Under the pieces are notes generated by a model. The model did no database searches. It was not told the origin of the DNA and worked only from the letters and a program-made list of their open reading frames with translations. Shown here piece by piece: positions 3,612 through 64,000 of a stretch of DNA of 64,000 bases. A program made the translations under genes and the position numbers. Origin of the DNA: Neophaeotheca triangularis (Eukaryota); contig BAAIJX010000068.1 in the NCBI GenBank assembly GCA_054600435.1, positions 1-64,000 of the forward strand, given 5' to 3'. The stretch's first letter is position 1; each line of letters opens with the position of its first letter.

Positions 3612-6230
3612 CTAGCTAGTCTGCTCCGGCCTCTGCAAGTAACTGCAGCTTTGCCAATCACAAGTATCCTTGTGAACCTCCGTCCCCCACCACGAAAAGT
3701 TGTCCGCAGCACCCGTATAGAAAACGGAGAAGAAAATTACGATACCGGCAATGGCAACGGAACAGTCGAGAGCGGAAGAAAGCACGAAATTGTACCTGCG
3801 CCACCAGTGCTCCTGCTTGCGCTTCACCAACAAGCCGAAAAGCAGACCCACGATCGCCCAAGAGCCGTAGTTGGTTCCAGATGCCGGGGGAATGTAGTTG
3901 AGGCCACCGAGAAAGAGCGGGACGTGGATCTTCTTCATCCAAGCACAGTTGGGAAAGAAGCGGCGACGCACGACGAACACTGCGGCAGGCAGGAGAGCGC
4001 CGACGAGGAAGAACCAGAGCAATGGTCGGTACCTCGCGCCTTCCTCAAAGAAGCGGCGAGGGCCTAGCGCGCCCCAGACCATGCTCGTGTTAAAGTGGGT
4101 ACGCGAGAAGGGGCATTGGAATCCGTTGACGGCGTCGAGCGTGCAGATGCCGTCGATGTGGTTCAAAGCCCAGTTGATGACGGAGACTTGACCGAGAGTA
4201 CCGAAGACAACACCCACGAGCTGGACGGCGAAAAGCTTGCGCGGAGGGATGTTGGTGTAGATCCCGAGCTTGAGGTCTTGGGCGAAAGCCAGACCCTTGA
4301 TGAGGCTGATGTATCCAAAGTTGAAGAACCAGATATTGGCGAGGACCTTGCCTTCCCAGATGTAGCCCGCCACAATGCGGCAAAAGATATCGATAGAGAT
4401 TTTGACGTTGGTTGTGGCATAGACCCAGGCAAGCTGCGGAGGTGATATTAGCATTTGTAAAAGCGTCTTGGGAGCGTTAGGGTGTACTGACAGGCACGAA
4501 GAAGACGGCAGAGATCACAAAAGCCAGGATCACGCCATACCAGTGTAGCTGCACTGGATAAACCTCAGAAAGGACGATTGCGATGATCACTGCGGCTGCA
4601 AGCGCTATCCAATACCACCACACTGGGACATGTCTGTAGGCGGAGTTTGTGTGACGTACGGGCCTGGGCGTCCTGGTCGCCAGCGCATAGAGACCGGATG
4701 CTTGGAAAGCGTGCTTAAGGTTGTCCCTCTTCTCGAGTGCCAGCCATACGAATAGAGATGCAATCGAAGCAAAGCAGAGACCAAAGGTGTTGAGTGCATA
4801 GGTGGTTGGAAGGTAGATCTAATCAAAGGTTAGCACAATATATCCCCTGATGAGGTTGACGCGGACGGCTTACATCGGAGTACTGGCGGTACAAAGTTTC
4901 GTTGAAAACGAAGCCCTCACCTTTGTCGATGACACGAGATACGTTGAAGACCTCGCCCGTGTTGTCGTAGATGGAGTTGCTCTGGATCGGCATGTATGCA
5001 CTGTCCCAGGTGTTGGAATAGTACAACGCCGGCGAGACAATATAGATCCAGAGCACGAGTGACGCCAGAATGTTGAGGATAGCCCAAGCAGGTACAACCA
5101 GAGGAGAGCCGATGTAAGCGATTTGACTCCCTGTGGTTGTCAGCTATGGCCCGTTTGAACGCCATTGCCATCATTGGTGGATCGACCTACAATCAAAAGT
5201 GACTGGAATGATTCCAAGTCCACTCTTCATGCCGAACAACTGGTTGACGACGGCGTCGTTTGGTGAGATCCAGCAGATCCAGGTAAAGTAGCCCAGGGCA
5301 GGGAAGATCAGGTCAGGGAACCAGTACCAGCAGAAAGACGCCATGAAAGCCATCAAGAAGAATCGGTAGCGAGACATCTTCCACTTGGAACTGTGAGGCT
5401 GTCAGCAAAGGAATTACCGCTGGGGATCGCTTAGCGGGATTTGGGCGACGTACGAAGTATCACTCTGATCTTCCTTCTTGCTGACGTGAAGCGCAGCGTT
5501 GAGAGCAGTGTTGCCCAGTACGCCAGGCCACACGAGAGATTTTGGCTCGACGACAAGAGTGTAGCTGATACCAGCAAGAGCGAATCCGAAAAGCAAAGTC
5601 GCCGCAGTGGTGAATATCTCAAAAGCCCAGCCAAGATCCAAGCCATAAAAGACACGCTGCTCGGTGAGGACGTCTGCGCTAAGACGGGTGAGGAAACTCA
5701 GGTTGGCCATGATGTAGACGAGCATGTTCTCCTGTAGTTGGCGTAAGCATAATGAAGTATCTATTGAACCTTGCGGAATTGCTTACCTTGGAGTTGAAAG
5801 GTCCCGGGTTGGTGTTGACCTTCAGGCCGAGCAGTGAGAACTCCCATTCCGGCACGGCCAAGTACCAGGCTTTACCAATGGGATAGGCGAGGAACTGGAT
5901 CGCCGACTGCGAAAGGGTGATGGAGGGTATCCTGAAAGTGTAGAGCGTGTTGACACCGCTGCCCAGCAGGCAGAACCCGATCCCAATCACCCACATGCGG
6001 AGGGTAAGGCATGGTGTTTCTGGATTGTCCTCGATGAGACCAACACCCGCAGCGTAGAGGATTTCGCTTTGGGAAGATTCCTCGGATGGACGCCTCTCCT
6101 CTTCCTGGACCGTGGGCGTTTTCGCCCCTTCGCCATCGATGTTGTCCGCGTCGGTTCGCCTGGATAGGTCGGTGAGCTCAGCAACGCCGTAGGCATCGCT
6201 AGCAGTGGCATGAACGCCGTTCGGAGCCAT
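3612..6230 (-). CDS. Oligopeptide transporter, OPT family (multi-exon)
   Basis: OPT motifs DNPETPCLTLRMW, NPGPFNSK/EH, WYWFPDLIFPAL, WGALGPRRFF, WWRRYNFVLSSALD; exons join through GT..AG introns with CTRAC branch sites and appear intact. Confidence 0.93.
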
Positions 6231-6251
6231 CTCGAGAAAAGGTCCGGAGGT

Positions 6252-7182
6252 ATCAGATAAGATGTCGACTGAGTGGAGGGAGTAACCGAATATCAGATAA
6301 GATTTTGGGGCGCCTCAAATTTATATACTTCTGCTGTCCATGTGCTAGCGACACCGGGCACAAGAGCGATTATTTTGTCCGTATTCTGCCGATAGCTTTA
6401 GACCCATAGTGATTCTTTGGCATCATATTTGGGCCTGAAGGTGCTTTGTTGAGCCCACGAAACGACCGTCTTACGATTAATGTCCGGCATTTAGCCCAAA
6501 ATTGGGGATCTTCAAACCAGTAGAGAGCCAGTATGCACCGTCCGAGCGTCCTGGTAGCCACTTTATCAGATCAATCGGATCAAGAAACGCTTGCAACGGA
6601 GTGGAAGCACTCAAGAAAAAAATAGAAAGAGGTAAGATGCTGCAAGACTTGGAGCAGGGTCCTTACAGGGCTGGTTGGAAAGATATGCGAAGCTAGGCAA
6701 AGACTACTTCCAAGCTTTTTAGCACATCCGGAACCCGCTGGCAATGAATCAGTCTTCCTTCGATTGCCGTCGCTAAACAGGAGTACATGCTCACTGTAGC
6801 GGTAGGGCTGTTGTTATTTGTCGGGCTGAAAGTGAAATGGTTAGTAGACACAAGTACAACCTGTATACCGTTAGGTTCGCTTCTAACAAGCCGTCTCGCG
6901 AGAGACCTTCCGAGACTCTTGATCTGATAATGTAGTCTACGCACTACAACATTTATGGTATTCCTTTCGTAATAACAAGGTGGACCACTAAACGACGGGC
7001 GCGAGTGGAGGCTCGTAGGGCTGGACAGTGGACACGTAAGGCTGGGAGGAACTAGTAACCACCCCAACCAAAGCCCTACAGGGCTGAAGTATGGACCATA
7101 ACTAAGACTTGAATACCAAGGGACGAAGTCCATCCGTTATCGGCCCGCCGACAAAAAGCTTTCTGATCTTTTGATCTGATAA
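6252..7182. promoter_or_regulatory. Five ATCWGATAA (SreA/Sre1-type GATA) boxes upstream of the OPT gene
   Basis: ATCAGATAA at 6252 and 6292; TTATCAGAT (reverse strand) at 6563; ATCTGATAA at 6922 and 7174; TATA-like TATATAAA on the minus strand at ~6320. Confidence 0.75.
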
Positions 7183-7539
7183 CAGCATCCACCTTGCATG
7201 GAACTTCTCAACTAGTCTAGACAACCCATGTCGAGCCATCCGCAGAGCTCGGCTGTCTCTACCCAGGCAGTTACTACTAGCAACAAAAGTCGAGGAGGCT
7301 GCGTTGAAACTTGTGGAGTGATGAAGCCACCACGTAAAGCCCCCGCCGTTTTCAAGTTTTCAATTTTCTCCGGGATCCGTTTATTCTCGATGAGCGGAAT
7401 CAATTCCTCAAAATTTGTAAACGACCACCTTTAAAGCGCTTGAAAAAAAACAATTGACTTTTGTCGTTCGCACGAACCTCGTCATCTCTATCGAACGCTC
7501 ATAGCCTCCCGTTAGTACGGTGTCCGCGGGCTCCGTCAT

Positions 7540-9160
7540 CAATGACGATCGATATTAACAAGAGGTTAGAGCTTGAGATGTGCGAATAGCGTGGCGTGTA
7601 GGGCAGACGAAAAGTGATATGCTGTATGAGCGGGGAGAGGACTGTGAAGACGGAGCATTCGATTCGAAGGCGCTTAATGGCAAATAGTAGCTAGGCGGCG
7701 CTAGCTTCGTCTTTACTAGGATGAGGAGGGCCCTAAGAAGAAAATTCGCTCAAGCAAAGTTATTAGATAAAAGGCCAGTGCAATCGACGTGTATCTACCG
7801 GCATACGATATTAAGCAGTTGTGAATCCTAGCTGTCGAGTGCAACGGTTGCTAATCGTAGTGGAGGTTACAGATAACAGCTTTGTTGAGGAGCCGGCTAT
7901 GTAGTCTAAGTTCTTCCCCTTTCTTACCTTCTAAATAGCTAAGTGAAGGAATGTAGATTGTAGAAGTCATGCGTGATCTGGCTGCAAAGTGACGTGCGAG
8001 GGTGAGACCTACATGTCGATTTTCTAAGACTGAGGTGAAAGTGTAAAGATGTCCTACGAAGTTCCGATTGTCGACTCCAACTCGCCTTGGACGCTGGCTC
8101 GAAACGACGCCCTAAGAAAATCTCCGACACCATTAGGAATCTCTACGTAGAGCAGTCTGTCGGCCTCGACGCGGGCAAGAGGCCCTATAGTGGCTGTGCG
8201 GTCTTCTTCGCCAGTCTAAATGCGACGATTTCATTGCCGCCGGTCGTCAGCGGTCTTATCCTGAGGTGAGAGCACCCGTTCGAGTAGTGAGTTGTAGACT
8301 ATACCACAGCATTGCATTGACAAACTGCGAACATAGCCGGAGGAAGCAAAGCCTCGACCGCAAAAATGTCTGTCGTGTTCGTACAGGTACTCTTAAGAGC
8401 TTATTTCGAAGCTAGACGGCAGATCTTGACAATCGCTTCCGCCAAACAATGTTCTGTGTTACTGCCGATGCTCGCTGGACTTTCCGGGCGCCTTTTCTGT
8501 CAGTCTCGTCATGGTCAGGTTTTCCAACGACGACATGGCCCGTCATGACCTCGCTCTTCTTCTCGAGATGCGAAGCGAGTCTACTACTGACGGCGGTTCA
8601 CCCGCCGAGGAGAGTTTCAAGTGATAGTATTGAATCAGCGAGCGCGAGCGCCAGTCGTGAAGTCAGCCCGGTGAGGGGATGCGAATTTCCTAACCCGAGT
8701 GTTCGAACGACCAAGTCCGGAGAGCATCTGTTATATGGTCGCGCTTCTAGATTGTCGACGAGGAAAAAGTCTAGTATTTCCTTCTTGCGGCAGTATAGCG
8801 AGGGTTTGGTTTCGCTTAGCAGTTTGAGGTCCTAAGACGAAGATGGAGCAGGTATGCAAAAAGATTTGGAACGGTTCCTCGTAAAGGTATCGAGGTGGGC
8901 GGAGGCCGTCACGCTCGAGGAGGTGTCGCTAGAGTGGAAGATGCATGCGGAGGCAATATCTAGCTACCTTGCATACCGTCGTAATGGTAACTAGAACCGT
9001 GGTCTTTAATACACGGAGAATGGTCGGACGAGGTCGGAGAAGCACAGAAGACGGCAAAAGCCGGGGGTTGCCGGGGCAAGGCAAGGAGATTGATAGTACG
9101 GATCTGGCCGAAAGTTCCTTGAGAGCGGAGGCTGAGGCGATAGAAGCTGAACGGCTTAAC
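7540..9160 (+). pseudogene. Probable decayed gene with in-frame TAA/TAG stops and a frameshift
   Basis: Protein-like fragments (ITALLRSRL; LGRWLETTP / KKISDTIRNLYVE across a 1-nt shift; ORF 8449-8835 continues past TAA as DEDGAGMQKDLERFLVKV...), many stops compatible with CAR->TAR changes. Confidence 0.35.
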
Positions 9161-9168
9161 TAGAAAAG

Positions 9169-9177
9169 ATCTGATAA
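9169..9177 (+). promoter_or_regulatory. ATCTGATAA SreA-type box upstream of the solute-binding protein gene
   Basis: Exact consensus, ~370 bp upstream of ATG 9545. Confidence 0.65.
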
Positions 9178-9544
9178 AAGCCAAACGGACAATCAATCAT
9201 CATTGATTGTTTTGGATGTTCTGAGACAGTCGATCCACAGCGGAATCTCTCCTCGCCTGCTCTGTTCCAGGTTACCTGAGTAACATCCAAGGACGGCCTT
9301 TGCGTTATGATGTGACGCGGCATTGTACAATTTGTGAAACCTTGACAGCAAAGGTAACGTTAACTTAATCAAAGTTACCAAGCTATGCTTACAAAGGAGG
9401 GCAGGGAGGCTTTCCGCGCCATGAAAGAGCTGGATACGTATATAGCATTCGTTGCAGCTCGTAGGTAGTAGGTAGCCGCTTCCATACGTCTTCAACCACA
9501 GCAACACCTACCTTTCATCACTACTTCACCATCTCCAAGACAGT

Positions 9545-10699
9545 ATGAAGCTCCAAGTAGCTTCTCTCGGCCTCGCAGCCATCGGTGCCAGCGCTCAATG
9601 GCAGCCTACAGTCCCGGTCGAGACGAGGTCCCTCGAAGACATCTACGCCGCCGCACAAGAAGAGGCTGCCACCAACGGCTCCAACCCACTCCAAGTCGCC
9701 TGGGGCGGCGATGGCGGTCGACAGGGCCAGGGTGTGCGTGACATGTGGGCTGCCCGATTCCCCGACATTCCCCTAAACTTGACCGTCGACTTGAGCAAGT
9801 TCCACGACGGCCGCCAGGACATTGCTTTCTACGAAGGTCGTCACAAGAACGATATTGCCGTCTTGCAAACTTTGCAGGACTTTCCTCGATGGAAGGCGCA
9901 GAACAGGCTCATGTATTACAAGCCTAGAGAGTTTGATGATATCTTCAATGGCGAGAAGGATCCCGATGGTGCTTGGTTGGGGCTGTTCAACTGTAAGTCC
10001 ATTGCCCACTGTGTCAATGCCGGTCACGGGTACTAACAGTGGACAGACAACTTCGGCCGCCTGGTGTACGACAACACCAAACTCAATGCCTCTGCGGTCC
10101 CCACAACCTTCGAAGCCTTCCAAGACCCGGCCTGGAAATCAAAGCTGATCCTAACCTATCCCAACGACGACGACGCCGTCGCCTACCTCTTCGCCCTCAT
10201 CGTCTCCAAATATGGCCACTCCTGGTTGGAGAATCTAGCTAGAAACGACGTCCGCTGGGTTAAAGGCACGGGAACACCCGCTTGGGAGATCGAACGCCTA
10301 CACAATTCCACCGACGCCCATTGCTACCTGACCTTCACAACCGGCGACGCGGGCAGCGAGACCTGGTGGGGCAACGACGAGCCCAACGACCAGTTCGTAA
10401 CGTGGGCGCAAACGGGCGCCATTTTCGCCAACACGCCGCGCCCGGAAGCTTCCAAGCTGTTCATCTCCTGGATCACGAGCCCGGAGTTCCAGCAGTCGCA
10501 ATCGAGCACGCAGTACGGCTTGCACACGGTGGAGACGAACCCGCTGCTGAGCAACAGGACACAGTTGTCCGGGTTCAGGCAGTTTGAGGAGACTCGCGCA
10601 ACTGTGGAGTGGTGGAAGAACCAATTTGAGGATGTTTTGGGCACGCCGCAGGGCCCTTCGCCGTTGGAAGTTTACCCCAACCCGCCTTATCAGGCGTAG
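9545..10699 (+). CDS. Secreted periplasmic-binding-protein-II-like protein (bacterial ABC Fe3+/AfuA-type substrate-binding fold), ~366 aa, 1 intron
   Basis: Signal peptide MKLQVASLGLAAIGASA; intron 9993-10046 (GTAAGT..TACTAAC..CAG) restores frame; SBP-like motifs LEDIYAAAQEE, DIAVLQTLQDF, FQDPAWKSKLILTYPNDDD, AIFANTPRPEASKLFISWITSPEFQ. Confidence 0.8.
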
Positions 10700-11062
10700 G
10701 GTGGAAGAGATAGACCTCTCTTCTTGAAGAAAGTTCTTAAAGGGAGTCAACTTGAGATTGATCTGCTCCCGAGCGATCCTGCTTTCTGTTTAATCTAATT
10801 CGAATGTGCCGTCAAGAGTCGTTGTATTAAACCGTGTCAAGGCTCAAACTGTTTACCGCTTGGACCTTTCTCCTCGAAAAGAGAAGAAAAGTAGCGTATT
10901 CGCGCATTTCCAAAACGTAATGCAAGATACTTCGATTAGAAAAAAAAAGTATCTATGGAGGTCCTGAACAGGTTCTCTAGTCATTGAACCTTCGGCGTAA
11001 GTGTGGGGATACAGGCAGTGACTAGTTACCCATCTAGGAGTAGTGTTTGGGAAGCCAGCAGG

Positions 11063-11071
11063 ATCTGATAA
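11063..11071 (+). promoter_or_regulatory. ATCTGATAA SreA-type box with an adjacent second GATAA
   Basis: GGATCTGATAAGATCGATAAG at 11061-11081. Confidence 0.5.
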
Positions 11072-11230
11072 GATCGATAAGAACTCGTATCTACTAACCA
11101 ATGGGCCTTACTGTTACCACTTCCAAGCATTGGGGACTTACACATAATCACTTTTAACTACCTTACCTTACCCAAAAGCCCAGACTTCGATTTCACTCGC
11201 TTGGTCAAAACGACCGCGCAAAGGCGCCAA

Positions 11231-13342
11231 ATGCAATGCCGGAGCGCCCTGAGGAGGTCAAAATGCCACAACCGTCGAGCATATAACCCAGCATTGGCGC
11301 TATCGTCCACATTCTCGACCGTCTCGTCTGGCAGGGCGCAGCAAACACGACCGTCGATACGCAAAGCGGACGGCCATTATCCGACCAAAGAGCAGGTGAA
11401 TCACTATGGTCATGGTTACTACACAAAACACGTGTTGAGTGCGCAGAGAAGGGAGCATCGATTCGAGGAGAAAGATGTTGGTGCCGAGGAGGGTTCGTTG
11501 GCGGAAGGCGATGGTTCTTTTGATCAAGGCAACTCGTCGCAGATGGGGGCGCAACAAACAGCCGGTGTGGGTATTGCTGCAGAGACTTGGGGAGAAATGG
11601 AACAGACAGCCCGCGGAGAAGATGCTGTTGCTGAGGGGACCGAAGGAATCGAGGGCGAAATGCTTGATGGTCATCCTGAGTCACTAGCCGATACAATAGA
11701 TACTCAACTACTTACGGGGTGGAGGAAACAAATGGCTGAAATACGTAACCAAGCAAAAGCATGGAAAAGCGTCGCGCTTCCCGACGATCCGACGGCATTG
11801 CAAAAGATGAAGGATGCCCTTGACTACGAAGGCGAAGCTCTCTCGCCGGACGAACAAGACATCCGTACTAAGAAAGACGTCCGTACATCGAAAGACACGC
11901 TGTTGGAAGCTTCTAGTTCGGCTGTCAAGTACTGCCCACCTCGTACCATCTTGCGCCAGGAGATCAACAACTTTGCCCATTTCTGCAAGATGACAGATGC
12001 CGAGAGGAGAGCAAGATACGCTGTTGCTTACGAAGTAACCGCCTTCATGAGGCGAGCAATACCGAATCAAGGGGCCAGTGTAGAAGTTTATGGCTCCGAG
12101 AAAACTAGTCTGGCCTTCCCTACCTCCGACATCGACTTTCGCCTGTTTCGGAAGCAATCCAAACGTAGGAGCCAAACTGCCACTACAAAGCTCCTACCTC
12201 TGGTGTACGACAAGATGAAAGACGACCCAACCTTTACCTCTGTAATTTTTCGCCCTATGGGCAAACACCCCATGCTGTGTGCACAACACGCCGCAACGGG
12301 CATAGACATTCAAATCACCCCGAGCTCGTCAAACATAAACCAACAAGTGCACATTAAAGCCCTACTGACCGAAATCCCGGCACTTCGTTCCGTCTACCGC
12401 CTCTTGCACGCCACCCTCAGTGCCCGCGGTTTGACCCAAGTCTATCACGGTGGACTCGGAAGCTACGGCTTGCTGATCCTCCTAGCCGCCGCACTGAGAC
12501 GCCGGGGCTCAAAAACCTCTTACCGCGACCAGCACTGCGGCGTCCAACTCCTCGCCGCCCTAGACTTTCTAACCAACCACCTACCCCTCCACCTCCACAC
12601 TCGTGGCCTCACCGCCCACCCCGTCTCCAAACCCTTCCTCAAACACGACTGGACACGACCCCAATTCTCCTCCAACCCAGCAAACCCACCCACCCCAGAA
12701 GACCCGCCCATCCCTCAAACAACCACAACCCCCAACCACCCAGTTCCAATCCCCAGCACCCTAATCCGCGCCGCCCTCGCCCGCACCGATCCCGTAAGAG
12801 CAGGGCAATGGTTCATCTCGACCCTCAAACCACTGCAACCGTACCTGCTCAGCCTCCAGGACCCAGACGACCCTCGCAACGACCTAGGTCGCAACGCGCA
12901 CGCCATCAAGCATATTCTAGCCACTCTCACCGCGCTGCGGGAGAAGCTGCTGCGGGAGATGGAAGAGCTTGGGCAGCGGGAGGAGGGCGAGGAGGCTGAG
13001 AAGCGGCCTGGGGAGGGTTTGCGGACGGAGATGAGGCAGCAAGGGCGGACTTTATTGCGGGATTGGGTCGGCACGGGGTGGGTCAAGGCTTTCAAGGAGA
13101 AAAGGGCGAGGATTGAGGGGTACGGCGTAGAAGTCTCGAGGCGAATTCGGGAAGAAGTCTCGTTGGCCGAAAAACCGGGGCAGGAGGATGGCGGGAGTGG
13201 AGGTCAAGACATGGAGGAAGGTGGGGGAAAGAAAGGAGAAGAAAGGCCTGTTAAGATCAAGTACCAGGCGGTTGCGGATGTCAAGGACACAGAAAGGAAA
13301 AAGTTGAAAGCAGGGCCGTGGCTTTTCACTCACCCGCATTAA
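11231..13342 (+). CDS. Non-canonical poly(A) polymerase / terminal nucleotidyltransferase, Trf4/Cid14-like, possible mitochondrial presequence
   Basis: Pol-beta NTase motif YGSEKTSLAFPTSDIDF, GGLGSYGL, PAP-associated LSLQDPDDPRNDLGR; Arg/Ser/Ala-rich, acid-free N-terminus from ATG 11231. Confidence 0.82.
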   Translation: MQCRSALRRSKCHNRRAYNPALALSSTFSTVSSGRAQQTRPSIRKADGHYPTKEQVNHYGHGYYTKHVLSAQRREHRFEEKDVGAEEGSLAEGDGSFDQGNSSQMGAQQTAGVGIAAETWGEMEQTARGEDAVAEGTEGIEGEMLDGHPESLADTIDTQLLTGWRKQMAEIRNQAKAWKSVALPDDPTALQKMKDALDYEGEALSPDEQDIRTKKDVRTSKDTLLEASSSAVKYCPPRTILRQEINNFAHFCKMTDAERRARYAVAYEVTAFMRRAIPNQGASVEVYGSEKTSLAFPTSDIDFRLFRKQSKRRSQTATTKLLPLVYDKMKDDPTFTSVIFRPMGKHPMLCAQHAATGIDIQITPSSSNINQQVHIKALLTEIPALRSVYRLLHATLSARGLTQVYHGGLGSYGLLILLAAALRRRGSKTSYRDQHCGVQLLAALDFLTNHLPLHLHTRGLTAHPVSKPFLKHDWTRPQFSSNPANPPTPEDPPIPQTTTTPNHPVPIPSTLIRAALARTDPVRAGQWFISTLKPLQPYLLSLQDPDDPRNDLGRNAHAIKHILATLTALREKLLREMEELGQREEGEEAEKRPGEGLRTEMRQQGRTLLRDWVGTGWVKAFKEKRARIEGYGVEVSRRIREEVSLAEKPGQEDGGSGGQDMEEGGGKKGEERPVKIKYQAVADVKDTERKKLKAGPWLFTHPH

Positions 13343-45617: not shown

Positions 45618-46623
45618 CTACTTCCCAGCCAACCAGCCAAACTTATTCCTCTTAACCCTCGGCGCCACACCGACAACAACCAAGACACTCGCGACGACAA
45701 CGGCCCAAAGCTGCATACCCAAAACATTGACGTTGAAAGTCGTAAAAGTCGCGGCGCAAACCGTCGCCAACATCAACAGCAGCGTCACGTACCCGCCGAC
45801 ACGATGGTACTTGTAAAGCCGCTTGGCCTTTTGCTCGCCACCGTACAGCGCGGGCGCGAAGAACTGCGTGATGCCGACGATGGCTTGCAGGAAGAGCAAG
45901 AGGTAGGTTATGAGGCCGAGGATGGCGTGCGGGGACTCGAAGTGCGTGCCGCCGTGTGAGATTTTGTTGTATTCGATTACCACCAGCCCGGCTAGGCCGG
46001 CGGATAGGGCGAGGTTGTTGAGCGCGCTGTGGGTGTAGGTTCCGCGTTGTTTTTGCGTTGCCGTGTGGGTTGGTTGGAGGACTAGGATTGCTTGGGTTAG
46101 GAAGAGGAGGAGGGCGGAGTTGAGGAGCTGTGTGGAGAGGGGAGGGTTAGTTGTTTGCATGGGGTGGGGGTGAGTGGGGGGGGGGGGGGGGGGGGCCAAG
46201 GGGGATTCGTACGGGATGCGCGGAGAATAGGATCAGGTCGTGGCTGAAGACGGCGCCCCAGACAATAGCCGTGAGCTGTGGGTAAGGTAGGTGTCGTCAG
46301 TATACCTGCGCGTTTCGTCTGGTGTTGGGGTGGAGGGGGGGAGCTTCGTACAATCCAAACACCAGCTTGCGCGACAACGCCCGTTCCTGAAGAAGCCATT
46401 GTCAGTGCCCGTCTGGTCGACATCTTGGGAGACAGGATTCGTTTGTGTAGAAGAAAGAGGGAGAGGATGAAAGCTCACCAACGATGAAGTTATGGTACAG
46501 CGGCTTGCCCTCCTGCTGACTGGCGTCTCCGGCTCTTCCTAGCAAGGGCTCGTCTTCGCCCATGCCCGGGATGCGTTGCTGCTGCTGCTGCTGCTGCTGC
46601 TGAGGCTGCTCTTGTTCGGACAT
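45618..46623 (-). CDS. Cytochrome b561 family membrane protein (4 exons)
   Basis: HP/LLNS, H-x-ALN, HFESPHAILG, YKYHRVGGY heme-ligand His pattern; N-terminal polyQ; three introns. Confidence 0.85.
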
Positions 46624-59703: not shown

Positions 59704-62700
59704 TCACTTCTTTTTCTTCATCCAGCCAAGTACGCGGTCTCGCTTCCTAGTCGCGGGGGCCATTGCTTCGGTTGCGGCTTGGTCGGCTGCACCGGCAACA
59801 GCATCTTCCTCTCCCTGCTGCTCCTCTACTCCAAGTTGCTCGTGTGCTGCTTGTTGCCTGTCTTCCTGCTGGAACCCGGTCTCTCGCAAAGCGTCAGATG
59901 GATGGCCGTGTGCGAGATCGTGACATGTGTCCTCCGCGCCATGTTCGGTGCCGTCAATGTCGATGTCACCGAGGGCAAGTACCTGTCGTAACCATGCGAT
60001 GTCCTTTTCATGATCGCCTTCGAGCTCCTCATAGCCTGCTAGCGCCCTTGCAAACATCGCGCGCGCTTCGACATCCTCCCCTCGGCGTCGGTGTAGCAGC
60101 CCTAGATTGTAGACGGTGCGAACACTGTATGCGTGCTTACGTCCTAAGGCCTCCTCGTACCCCTCTAGCGCTCGTACGAACATCTCCTCTACCTTCTCGT
60201 ACTCGCCCTTCGTATCGTAGAGAGTACCGAGATTATTTACTGTGTCGAGAGTCGATGTATGCTTCGGTCCTAAGGCCTCCTCGTACCCCTCTAGCGCTCG
60301 TACGTACATCTCCTCCGCCTTCTTGAGCTTACCTTGCCTTACATAGAGAAGGCCGAGATTATGTACTGTGTCGAGAGTCGATGTATGCTTCGGTCCTAAG
60401 GCCTCCTCTTTCCCCTCTAGCGCTCGTAGGTACATCTCCTCTGCCTTCTCGAGCTCGCCTTGCGATAAATAGAGATTGCCGAGATTATTCACTATGTCAA
60501 GAGTCGATATATGCTTCGGTCCCAAGACCTCCTCTTTCCCATTTAGCGCCCTTACGTACATCTCCTCTGCCTTTTCGAGCTTATATTGCCTTTGGTAGAG
60601 AATGCCGAGACCATTCACTATACCGAGAGTCGATGTATGCTTCGGTCCTAAGACCTCCTCTTTCCCCTCTAGCGCTCGTGTGTACATCCTCTCTGCCTCG
60701 CCTAGTCTGGCTTGTACACAATAGAGGGTACCTAGTGATTGGAGACTGTCGAGGATGCCTTCCGATTCCCCTGCGTCTTCGTACATCTTCAATGCTCGCA
60801 AAAGAAGTTGCTCCATTGTGTGCGAGCTCTCCCAATCCGACAAGAACCGTGCAAGGTTATATAGCTCGCGCTCTAAGCCCGCGGGCGGCAACTTCAGATG
60901 CTGAGAGGCTACCGTTCGCGCGTGTGGGAGGAGTCGTCTCGCCAGAATGTAATCCTCGGTATGGGTGAGTGGCCATGGGTTCATCTGCGATACAAGACCG
61001 ATCGCTCGATTGCACAGCTGTTGCTTCGCTTCCGTAGTGGTCAGATTGTGCAAACACCAGGCGTGTACCACGGGGTGGATGGAAAAGCCCTGACCTTCAG
61101 CTTTCGGTGTAGCTAGTGAGTATCTCGATAGTATGCCAAGGATATCTTCGAACTCGTCTTCGCTGGAAGCAATACACGCTTCTTCGTCGGATTCGAATGC
61201 CAAGAGCTGATACCAGAGGTCTGCTGGAGAGAGAAAGGCCCAGAGGTCCAGCAAGTCTGCTGCCTGATGCTTGACCCTACGAACTTGTTCATAAGACATC
61301 TTCCAGGTCGTTAGCAGTGTTCTGTCGGATCTATGGGGGGAATGGAAGCTTTGTGAAGTCATGAGGTCCGCCCACGTTTTATCGTAGCGCTGTATGTATC
61401 TGTCGATCGAGATGTTGGTCGCCTTCAGAAACGCCCCAGCCTGAGCCAAAGCAAGGGGGAGACCTTCGAGTTTCTCCAATAGCCGTTTGAAATCTGTCAC
61501 AGCAAGTTAGATGAATCACTCTAATAGTGGAGCATAGGGTGGGGGAGTCTGGATATTACCTGGCGGTGGTATCTCTGGATGCTTCCCGACGATCTCTTGT
61601 CCGATATCATCGCTGACGCCTTGCAGGCGGAGGCTTGCTCCTGATCTTTGTAAAGATGCGAGGGACAACAGTCGAGTGGTGATCAGAAAGTTTCCGTGAT
61701 TGACTTCCTGGAAAATCTTGCTGTAATCGTAAGCTTGTTCATCTGCGCCCTCTACTTGCCAGTCGAGGTCGACGTTGTCGAGAACCAGAAGCCATCTACT
61801 GTTCTCGGCCTCGGTGAGCCATCTGAGAAAAGCGTTGGCGTCCTTGGCGACGTTTTGGGAGTCTGCTGATGGCTGAGCTTGATCGTGCGTTGAGCTGCTC
61901 GAGACACTCCTGAACGCACCAGCAAGAGACTGCCGCAGCGCAGCTATTCCAGAACCATCGAGCCAGAAAACGGCAGTGAAGTCCGCTTCGTGTCTTCGCG
62001 CATAATCGACACAGAGCTGTGTTTTGCCGATTCCTCCAATGCCATGAACAACGAAAATTCTTCGCTGCTCACGAGCACGAGGGGACTGAAAGAACTCCTC
62101 GAGCGGCCTCATGTCTTCATCGCGCGGCACAAAATTGTCAATTGCAGGAACTCCCTTCAGGCTGAAAGGCACATCGTAATCTGGCATTTGTTAGATACGC
62201 GGACCATTAATTGCAAATAGATAACCAAGATGACGTTAAAACAAACTACTTACTATTCCCTGCCAGTTGCATCTCTTCGACACCATGTGGATCAAGCTCG
62301 CCTAGAAGCTCTTTGGCGTAGCATGCAGCTGTCATGGCCGCGTAACGCTGCCACCGCTTGTTCTTGTGCGAGTCGGCGTAATCACAGACCCCTCGAATGA
62401 CGATACAAGGAAAAGAGTCCATCAAGCCAGCCGCCTCCATCTCGAAGCACAATATTCCTTCTTTCCGTGCGATGCGATCTCTCGTGGGAGCGTCCTTCAC
62501 AACTCCGTCGCCCGAAGCTATGTTGCCGTAATGAATCCTAGGCTTGTCGTTTTTTCGGCCTGGGGAACGCTTAACGAGCCGTGAGCGATCGCATTGCTGG
62601 CATGTGCCGCCTTCGGGGTGACTGTAGCTCGCCTCAAACAGCTCGTCGTTCTCCAGTCCCTGGTAGTCGTAGTTCTGTTCGACTAACGGTGGATGTTTGG

Positions 62701-63223
62701 TGAAAGCATCTTGCAGGTATTGGCCGACGTTACTGACTCTCAAGTCGTGCTCTGACTTTAGACTCTGCACCGCGTTCAGCAGCGCACGAGGTGGTTTGTT
62801 GAGCGTCCCCGTTTTCCTGAATTCCCCATTCTTCTCCATCTTGCCAAAATCCCACTGTACCACGCCGCCATGATCACCTTCCGGCTGGCTCACCACAACA
62901 TCGCCCAGCCTGATGTCTCTCTGTTCGCTCCATACTCCACCGCAGATACCGACCATGAAGCCAGCCTTGATGGGAAAACTGCGCATCATGTCTTTGGCGA
63001 CAGCGGTTGCCGAAACTTTCCCCATAACACCAGCCGGGAGGGATGCAACCACGACATTGTGCTCGCCGATTCTACCAAATGCGTAGACGTTATCGTCGCC
63101 TCTCGGCTTGCGCGGTCTTGCATGGCGAGCGTCCAAGACGGCTACCACTGCTGTTCTTTCAATGTCGAGCGCACAGATAATCCCAACGTTATAGGATTCG
63201 AGGGGATGAGTGGTGCTAGACAT
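59704..63223 (-). CDS. Fungal NLR: PNP_UDP effector - NB-ARC - TPR (~1126 aa, 3 exons)
   Basis: PNP_UDP motifs VGIICAL, DIRLGDVVVS, CFEMEAAGLM, IRGVCDYADSHKNKRWQ; P-loop GIGGIGKT, Walker B WLLVLDNVD, GLPLALAQA; introns 62181-62253 and 61494-61559 keep frame. Confidence 0.93.
60120..60700 (-). repeat. High-identity 126-bp (42-aa) TPR tandem repeats inside the NLR
   Basis: RAGAGTCGATRTATGCTTCGG recurs at 60247, 60373, 60499 and 60625. Confidence 0.92.
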
Positions 63224-64000
63224 CGTTCCGTCTCATCTTCTGTTGTCATCAAAGAAGCTGGAAAAAAGAGATGAAAAAGCGATGGAGAGCCCGTGGGCGC
63301 GTTAAGGTCTCTCGCCTCCCAGATCACGCATGTCAGCTCTCAAGCGTAAGCCTCAGCTGAGGGGAGCTTTGCATTATGCCCAAAGGCTTGCAGTCGAAGC
63401 AGTAATTGGTTTCCAAGGCGCCTAGGCAACGCCACGCAGGATGCGCTCATGAGAACTTGCAACAGCTGGGTCGCAGCGCTTATCAAGATCAAGTTGCCTT
63501 CCTTGGCATGGGTTCGCATCGCCCTTCGAAGATGGCGGCCCCGATCACGTCCTATCGATGCCTAGAGCCGCCTGTGGATCCAAAGTCGTGACCACAGTGA
63601 AGAGAGAACCTTTGAGCATCCTTTTCTTTGAAGTGCTGTGAAGTCGATGTATCGTAGCTGGCTCGGTTCTAGCCCTGGGCGAGTTTTGCCAGCCACCATG
63701 CGGGGTGCTGCGAGGGTGTGTTGGCACTGGCTGGTTGATGCATATCGTTGCACAGCTCGCCATCAACGCCACATTACAGGACACACCATCTGGGCATCCA
63801 CGTGGAAAAGCGAATCCTCAGCCTGGTGGCCTGGTGCCCGTGTGCCTCGAGGCAAGGCTGGAAAGTAGCGCCGTCTTCTGCCGCCCACCTAGCCAGCTGT
63901 CCTGGTGGCCGACACTGGCAAGACGACGACCGGCTTGTGCACCCCATAATGGAGTGTTTCCTGACATATGGTATTTGAGGACTAGAAGAAGGGAGCACCG

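Follow-up and report, generated by a model that had tools for sequence, protein, structure and literature searches.

We analysed a 64,000-nt stretch of the genome of the fungus Neophaeotheca triangularis (positions 1 to 64,000, forward strand, of contig BAAIJX010000068.1, assembly GCA_054600435.1; hereafter the window) and found that a gene for an OPT-family transporter and a divergently transcribed gene for a putatively secreted metal-binding protein of the Ibp family lie among seven exact copies of ATCWGATAA, the extended motif of the iron-responsive GATA repressor SreA. We regard it as probable, on balance, that an SreA-type factor represses this locus and that iron starvation induces it, with the OPT gene as the main target and the Ibp gene probably co-regulated.

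A motif search on both strands returned the seven boxes at the positions collected in Table 1 and no further exact copy anywhere in the 64 kb. All seven coordinates given in a preliminary description of this DNA were thereby recovered, together with its remark that the window held no other exact copy, and its expectation of 0.07 copies is close to the first-order Markov value of 0.058 boxes for positions 6231–11221 (4991 nt, both strands), relative to which the Poisson probability of at least seven is ~4e-13. Dinucleotide-preserving shuffles of the whole window contained 0.60 copies on average, and seven were reached in none of 100 shuffles. The ATC extension was present on seven of the ten WGATAA sites in 6231–11221 versus none of the 33 in the remaining window; five of the seven boxes have the longer form GATCWGATAA, and TTGATCTGATAA is common to three of them. 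The density of the general GATA motif HGATAR is 4.2/kb in the 3.3-kb spacer between the two genes (6231–9544) versus 2.1/kb in the window, and subtracting the six boxes located there leaves 8 of 14 sites, or 2.4/kb. Since this residue is at background level, the signal resides in the SreA-specific extended motif and not in a general density of GATA sites. The boxes are found in both orientations with differing flanks, and the longest similarity around any pair of them extends over 15 nt; an origin of the boxes from a repeat or mobile element was rejected given this longest common flank.

ATCWGATAA is the published extended SreA motif: it is 5.4-fold over-represented in the SreA regulon of Aspergillus fumigatus, where HGATAR is barely enriched, and it fits the sites bound in vivo by SreA orthologues at sid1 of Ustilago maydis and at str1 and fio1–fip1 of Schizosaccharomyces pombe (PMC2610380). 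The same motif has been used in work on Cladophialophora (PMC10382037). The reading of the motif as that of SreA in the preliminary description thus agrees with the literature, the proposal of regulation by iron through an SreA-type factor is well founded for this locus, and we hold with good confidence that the boxes are functional SreA-type sites.

As described earlier, six boxes lie between the divergent start codons of the OPT gene (6230, minus strand) and of the binding protein gene (9545), and the two at 6252 and 6292 fall between the OPT TATA-like element and the ATG. The six are split five to one: five are found in the 944 bp upstream of the OPT start codon, and one (9169) is near the Ibp gene, with a box-free stretch of ~2 kb (7183–9168) in the spacer. 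The placement of boxes at −22 and −62, between TATA element and ATG, fits repression of the OPT gene, which is almost certainly a target if the boxes are functional. Because two exact boxes flank the 1.2-kb Ibp gene, an arrangement with a chance probability of ~2e-4, the Ibp gene is also a likely target on the same premise, if appreciably less surely so than the OPT gene. Two further features of the box sequences may be recorded here: a near-palindrome, TTATTAGATAA, at 7760–7770 comprises two overlapping one-mismatch boxes on opposite strands, which are the sole near-matches in the box-free middle of the spacer, and a second GATA element, GATCGATAAG, directly follows the seventh box on its 3′ side (both within 11063–11084).

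The identification of the transporter made earlier held on closer inspection. All three exons tested in the six-exon splice model matched the Pfam family OPT (PF03169; E 1.2e-52, 3.1e-16 and 8.7e-13, at profile positions 1–68, 297–399 and 401–623), and the spliced model (residues 27–775) aligned with a 765-residue Colletotrichum OPT at 72.6% identity over 751 residues with four gaps. Its closest relatives are proteins of Colletotrichum and Fusarium, at ~72% identity over the full length. The best 120 matches were all named or Pfam-typed as OPT, mostly with fungal names, several unnamed and one labelled Lupinus, and the window's own OPT protein was not among these 120 as listed. No solved structure was matched by sequence. 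Judging by the names of its relatives, we infer that the protein belongs to the peptide-transport clade of the family; we found no member of this sub-clade with a tested substrate. Plant YSL proteins and OPT3 are metal-chelate carriers within the same family. In a quick tree, the OPT protein fell into a group with 99% support, whose 18 rows comprised Sordariomycete proteins and three Pleosporales and outside of which other Dothideomycete OPTs (a Didymella group, Aplosporella and Aureobasidium) were placed. That the OPT of this Dothideomycete appears nearest to Sordariomycete OPTs suggests paralogy or fungus-to-fungus transfer.

The binding protein is, as judged from sequence and predicted fold, a member of the Ibp family with the class II/cluster D fold of solute-binding proteins (SBPs). 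Its two-exon gene has a 54-nt intron in which, on reading the sequence, the donor is GTAAGT and the branch site TACTAAC, and exon 2 is 100% identical to a 366-residue database protein (hypothetical protein, Neophaeotheca triangularis). The preliminary description had called the product a secreted SBP, the fold of which is borne out by Pfam matches to SBP_bac_6 and SBP_bac_8 and by the predicted structure, and had assigned it to the bacterial FbpA/AfuA type, which is not. In a phmmer search of PDB sequences, the top match was 6HHB (E 2.4e-54; query 13–355, chain 20–360), followed by 6FJL (E 2.8e-52), and the ferric-binding proteins FutA2, FutA1 and FbpA matched at residues ~115–231 only, with E from 6.4e-5 to 1.3e-2; the full-length match is therefore to IbpS, of which 6FJL and 6HHB are the native and iron-bound structures in Dickeya dadantii (Liu et al. 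2019, PMC6813330). Consistently, an AlphaFold2 model built on 22 fungal homologues, with a mean predicted local distance difference test score (pLDDT) of 84.6 and a predicted template modelling score of 0.82, retrieved 6fjl_A at rank 1 in Foldseek (E 5e-32, template modelling score (TM) 0.79/0.83, 34% identity), the next matches, MctA, HitA and FbpA, being at E >=3.8e-16 and TM <=0.65 by TMq.

Conservation extends to the iron cavity. The low-affinity, non-canonical iron site of IbpS, near the dimer interface, is formed by S86, K87, Q110, T111, M334 and D191–D193 (PMC6813330), and seven of these eight residues (S86, K87, Q110, T111 and D191–D193) are identical in the window protein, the eighth, M334, being aligned with its E330. 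Among the 22 full-length fungal homologues, S84, K85, Q108 and D190–D192 (window numbering) are invariant and T109 is present in at least 90%. All 22 also have a hydrophobic N-terminal stretch, which in the window protein has the appearance of a signal peptide (Table 1) and corresponds to residues 1–18 with pLDDT <50 in the model. A profile search returned 814 Ibp-type proteins at E <=1e-10, the best 120 of which came from Dothideomycetes, Eurotiomycetes, Leotiomycetes (including Botrytis and Sclerotinia), Sordariomycetes and some basidiomycetes, and the closest named relatives among the matches listed belong to Mycosphaerellales, at 53–58% identity. One homologue, the 372-residue protein of P. 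fijiensis, which we matched by species and length to our database match P0024, is listed in Supplementary Data 2 of PMC6813330 with SignalP YES and as class I, the class of BcIbp of Botrytis cinerea; this class is probable for the protein, which a second sheet seems to put in another column.

From bacteria, the Ibp family has reached fungi, oomycetes and some animals. It was described in 2019, when IbpS, which is secreted and dimeric, IbpP and BcIbp were found to bind Fe- and Cu-nitrilotriacetic acid resins (PMC6813330). According to the same work, IbpS has no canonical ligand cleft, adopts a closed-like state without ligand and lacks both the central helix of AfuA and FutA and the residues with which these proteins bind iron; addition of IbpS lowers intracellular iron signalling and protects from H2O2, and ibp mutants of Dickeya and Botrytis have reduced virulence.

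Taken together, both products would fit metal physiology, in the case of the Ibp protein on the basis of family membership and fold match, and we infer repressor binding, iron-dependent expression and a transporter substrate along the following lines. In iron-replete cells, an SreA/Fep1-type two-finger GATA repressor would occupy the ATCWGATAA boxes and shut off the OPT gene through the five boxes within 950 bp, where repressor bound in the interval from TATA element to ATG would block initiation. The Ibp gene would probably be shut off too, through one box at −368 and another just downstream of the gene. When iron is scarce, both genes would be derepressed; the secreted Ibp protein might then loosely hold Fe3+ (and Cu2+) outside the cell at its conserved acidic S-K/Q-T/D-D-D site, and the OPT protein might import a small solute useful under iron shortage, for example a peptide-like metal chelate or glutathione. 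In this scheme, Ibp and OPT would act in parallel within one regulon and not as a docking pair.

Several points weigh against such a scheme. OPT genes are classic nitrogen- and GATA-regulated genes in other fungi. The Ibp gene has one box only within 1 kb upstream, and the box at 11063 may belong to the next gene, the downstream nucleotidyltransferase gene, and control it rather than the Ibp gene. Activation by HapX with the CCAAT-binding complex would use CCAAT sites, and since the 3.3-kb spacer holds a single CCAAT on both strands (0.30/kb versus 1.84/kb in the window), there are few sites for such activation. The role proposed for Ibp proteins is extracellular buffering or sequestration of metal that lowers uptake, and not the feeding of a transporter, and in Dickeya, induction of ibpS occurs under conditions of non-limiting iron (PMC6813330). 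In addition, three metagenomic loci with Ibp homologues 67–76% identical to the window protein contained no ATCWGATAA, nor TCWGATAA or ATCWGATA, their flanks being short (on the upstream side, 86 nt in L001 and an intergenic ~1.2 kb in L003; on the downstream side, 930 nt in L002), so that conserved boxes, to which the preliminary description had looked as a check, were not found in these relatives.

The same description had also looked to conserved linkage of the two genes, for which relatives likewise gave no support. In L003 (67% identity), the one locus of the three whose flanks are usable, no OPT gene lies in the 1.2 kb before the Ibp homologue or in the 1.4 kb after it, and adjacency as judged by locus tags was found in neither of the two comparable species, the tags being far apart in A. 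alliaceus (Ibp ETB97_000868, OPT ETB97_007489) and in P. soppii (Ibp N7529_000020, OPT N7529_010672), where orthology of the OPT proteins is assumed at ~64–66% identity on the last exon. Of 20 named Ibp-bearing species besides N. triangularis, three recur among the best 120 OPT matches. On this evidence the window's SreA-type locus, with support that is in silico, may be lineage-specific. The L003 neighbourhood is wholly unlike that in the window: upstream (116–619), on the same strand, is a gene for a Fungal_trans_2 transcription factor, and downstream (3912–4406) is an open reading frame (ORF) that matches no Pfam family and whose product has a hydrophobic N-terminal stretch. In a second data set labelled as this organism (X2), which carries the locus at a few percent divergence, one contig spans 6161–6498 with five differences, none of them in the boxes at 6252 and 6292, an outcome expected by chance in ~76% of cases. 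In another data set (X3), short OPT-like and Ibp-like pieces occur on separate contigs (69.5 kb and 88.7 kb). As the piece resembling Ibp ends up ~1.4 kb from the end of its contig and that resembling OPT may be a paralogue, their separation carries no information on linkage. We also observed that X2 covers the locus with 79 short contigs (20 at >=99% identity, 39 at 95–99%, 14 at 90–95% and six below 90%) and that in places two contigs over one stretch diverge widely in their count of differences, as with 6 versus 38 over 8702–9075, a pattern suggestive of two diverged haplotypes or of a strain that is hybrid or heterozygous.

Other explanations of the cluster can be set against these data. 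That it is a chance or non-functional feature, such as the remnants of repeats, is barely credible given a probability of ~4e-13, the failure of 100 shuffles to reach seven copies and boxes in both orientations with differing flanks and no repeat above 15 nt around them. A different GATA factor, for instance AreA, might read the boxes, in which case the locus would be a nitrogen-scavenging pair for peptide import. The HGATAR core is indeed inside every box, and in other fungi nitrogen limitation elicits a response of OPT genes; raised expression of oligopeptide transporters under nitrogen limitation is mentioned as a possibility in PMC3757043. We nonetheless find this improbable, since the 9-bp extended motif is what is enriched, with ATC on seven of ten local WGATAA sites versus none of 33 others and the residual HGATAR sites at background, and since the extended motif and not HGATAR marks the A. 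fumigatus SreA regulon (PMC2610380). Regulation of the OPT gene alone, with Ibp an unrelated neighbour and its two boxes incidental or serving the downstream nucleotidyltransferase gene, has more in its favour and is still unlikely: five of seven boxes are no farther than 944 bp from the OPT start codon, ~2 kb without boxes precede the single one at Ibp −368, the box at 11063 is closer to the start of the next gene than to the Ibp promoter, and none of three related Ibp loci has boxes, yet with ~0.01 boxes/kb expected, two flanking a 1.2-kb gene within 1.9 kb would arise with a Poisson probability of ~2e-4, and Ibp belongs to a family of metal-binding proteins for which control by iron is functionally plausible.

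The preliminary description went further than co-regulation and proposed that the binding protein captures an iron complex and docks to the OPT for delivery, in a binding-protein-dependent secondary uptake route. The genes are divergent neighbours with exact SreA boxes near each, fungi generally lack the ABC importers that use SBPs, and SBP-dependent secondary transporters of the TRAP and TTT types exist in bacteria; moreover, a different in vivo ligand of Ibp proteins, or a metal complex as ligand, was left open by the authors who described them (PMC6813330). Such a hand-off is very improbable all the same, and was not corroborated, the only link between the genes consisting of proximity over 3.3 kb and boxes near each, which are split five to one. 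L003 lacks an OPT gene nearby, locus tags are adjacent in neither species, few Ibp-bearing species recur among the OPT matches, and the nearest relatives of the two proteins differ, being in Mycosphaerellales (53–58%) for Ibp and in Colletotrichum and Fusarium (~72%) for OPT. Furthermore, the lack of the cleft, the closed-like state and the weak iron binding reported for IbpS (PMC6813330) are unlike a delivery protein. We prefer repression of both genes by an SreA-type factor, with parallel action of their products.

Apart from the boxes, the 3.3-kb spacer appears to be non-coding: no gene was detected in it, none of its 16 ORFs of 60–147 residues had a Pfam family, and no Rfam match was obtained at E <=0.1. 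Its features and those of the flanking genes are given in Table 1. Elsewhere in the window, 24 other long ORFs were scanned, 14 with and 10 without Pfam families, and these are housekeeping or unrelated genes, encoding, among others, trehalose-phosphate synthase/phosphatase, SNF5, GPP34, OST3, a PHD protein, an ankyrin protein, an acyl-CoA ligase, a hydroxyacyl-CoA dehydrogenase, an NLR-like protein and a cytochrome b561. The motif search over the 64 kb placed no box near any of these, and no gene for an ABC permease or ATPase was present among the 24 long ORFs scanned. The ORF with a cytochrome b561 domain (45621–46232, minus strand; Pfam E 3e-15), without a nearby box, is the only other window gene possibly related to iron. 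The NLR-like gene (59707–63232, minus strand) has the typical architecture of fungal NLRs, with an N-terminal domain of the nucleoside phosphorylase type (PNP_UDP_1), an NB-ARC/AAA NTPase and TPR repeats.

Table 1. Coordinates of the OPT–Ibp locus, its SreA-type boxes and the adjoining gene, numbered from the first nucleotide of the window.
Feature	Position	Strand	Basis	Remarks
OPT-family transporter gene	3612..6230	-	splice model	six exons (6230-5787, 5731-5454, 5390-5191, 5130-4874, 4818-4492, 4433-3612); ~775 residues
Intergenic control region	6231..9544	.		3.3 kb, between divergent OPT and Ibp genes; holds 6 boxes
SreA-type box ATCAGATAA	6252..6260	+	motif search	22 nt upstream of OPT ATG, between TATA element and ATG
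SreA-type box ATCAGATAA	6292..6300	+	motif search	62 nt upstream of OPT ATG, between TATA element and ATG
TATA-like element, OPT promoter	6320..6327	-	TATAWA matches at 6320/6322	~90 nt upstream of ATG
SreA-type box TTGATCTGATAA (minus strand)	6563..6571	-	motif search	333 nt upstream of OPT ATG
SreA-type box TTGATCTGATAA	6922..6930	+	motif search	692 nt upstream of OPT ATG
SreA-type box TTGATCTGATAA	7174..7182	+	motif search	944 nt upstream of OPT ATG
SreA-type box GATCTGATAA	9169..9177	+	motif search	368 nt upstream of Ibp ATG
TATA-like element, Ibp gene	9439..9444	+	sequence reading	~100 nt upstream of ATG
Ibp-family secreted metal-binding protein gene (putative)	9545..10699	+		exon 1 9545-9992, intron 9993-10046, exon 2 10047-10699; 366 residues
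Putative signal peptide	9545..9595	+	inspection: basic N-terminus, 12-residue hydrophobic core, small residues at -3/-1	residues 1-17, A-S-A before Q18
SreA-type box GGATCTGATAA, then GATCGATAAG	11063..11071	+	motif search	364 nt past Ibp stop, ~150 nt before first usable ATG of next ORF
Next gene, MTPAP-like (poly(A) polymerase/Cid-type) nucleotidyltransferase palm domain	11222-13339	+	Pfam PF22600, E 5e-11	

While neither the motif nor the Ibp or OPT family is new, their combination is unpublished as far as our search of the text of open-access papers and bioRxiv preprints shows, and the gene content is unprecedented for an SreA-type locus. In that literature, taken without transcriptome supplements, we found nothing that connects a fungal OPT or Ibp-type protein with iron starvation or with the regulators SreA and HapX. 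The main text of PMC6813330 contains 'iron starvation' not once and 'transporter' once, the sections consulted mentioning neither SreA nor an OPT neighbour, and the words 'oligopeptide', 'periplasmic' and 'binding protein' do not occur in the main text of PMC2610380. The locus thus links Ibp and OPT to fungal iron starvation as an interesting in silico lead, as yet unproven. Were iron control to apply, an OPT-type transporter would join a fungal iron regulon so far made up of siderophore, reductive-uptake and regulatory genes. It is possible, if doubtful, that Ibp proteins are iron-capture proteins induced by iron starvation without direct docking, and even this weaker form, if true, would already revise the published model of sequestration and shielding from reactive oxygen species (ROS). 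The boldest version, with a horizontally acquired, secreted Ibp as the extracellular capture arm and OPT as the membrane arm of iron-starvation uptake in a eukaryote, has very little probability in our estimate; if true, Ibp–OPT would be a eukaryotic case of binding-protein-assisted import, separate from the siderophore/MFS and Fet3/Ftr1 routes. The occurrence of Ibp and OPT genes among seven perfect boxes offers a concrete and cheap test of the role of Ibp in iron starvation, and if expression proved independent of iron, it would indicate that even a very dense cluster of motifs can mislead.

Among known systems, the window protein is closest to IbpS and BcIbp, with which it shares full-length homology, the best structural match, seven of eight cavity residues and a putative N-terminal secretion signal, and from which it differs in the replacement of M334 by E. 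N. triangularis, unlike the Ibp hosts studied, is no known necrotrophic plant pathogen, and the Ibp gene in the window adjoins an OPT gene among SreA boxes, a context unmentioned in the sections of PMC6813330 consulted. Whereas the published Ibp model is one of sequestration and protection from ROS, the reading proposed here is of a response to iron starvation. With bacterial ferric-binding proteins (FbpA, FutA1/2, HitA, SfuA and AfuA) and MctA, the Ibp protein has in common the class II/cluster D Venus-flytrap fold (TM 0.52–0.65), but its identity to the ferric-binding proteins is 12–16%, with TM 0.52–0.58 for FutA and FbpA, and the sequence match is limited to residues ~115–231. The OPT protein resembles the peptide-transport type of its family (isp4, glutathione transporter 1 and small oligopeptide transporter of Colletotrichum, Fusarium and Aspergillus), with which it aligns end to end at ~70–73% identity.

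At the level of regulation, the locus is like promoters of the SreA/Fep1/Urbs1 regulon in having multiple ATCWGATAA boxes in a divergent intergenic region and products that are plausibly iron-related. It is unlike that regulon in that its genes are not for siderophore biosynthesis, a SIT-type siderophore transporter or a ferroxidase/permease, and unlike the regulon promoters of A. fumigatus, S. pombe and U. maydis in that its boxes are known from sequence alone. Other organisms offer parallels by analogy only, from unrelated families: the Chlamydomonas protein FEA1 and the diatom phytotransferrin ISIP2a capture iron at the surface or as secreted proteins under iron shortage, and the bacterial TRAP and TTT systems are non-ABC secondary transporters fed by SBPs.

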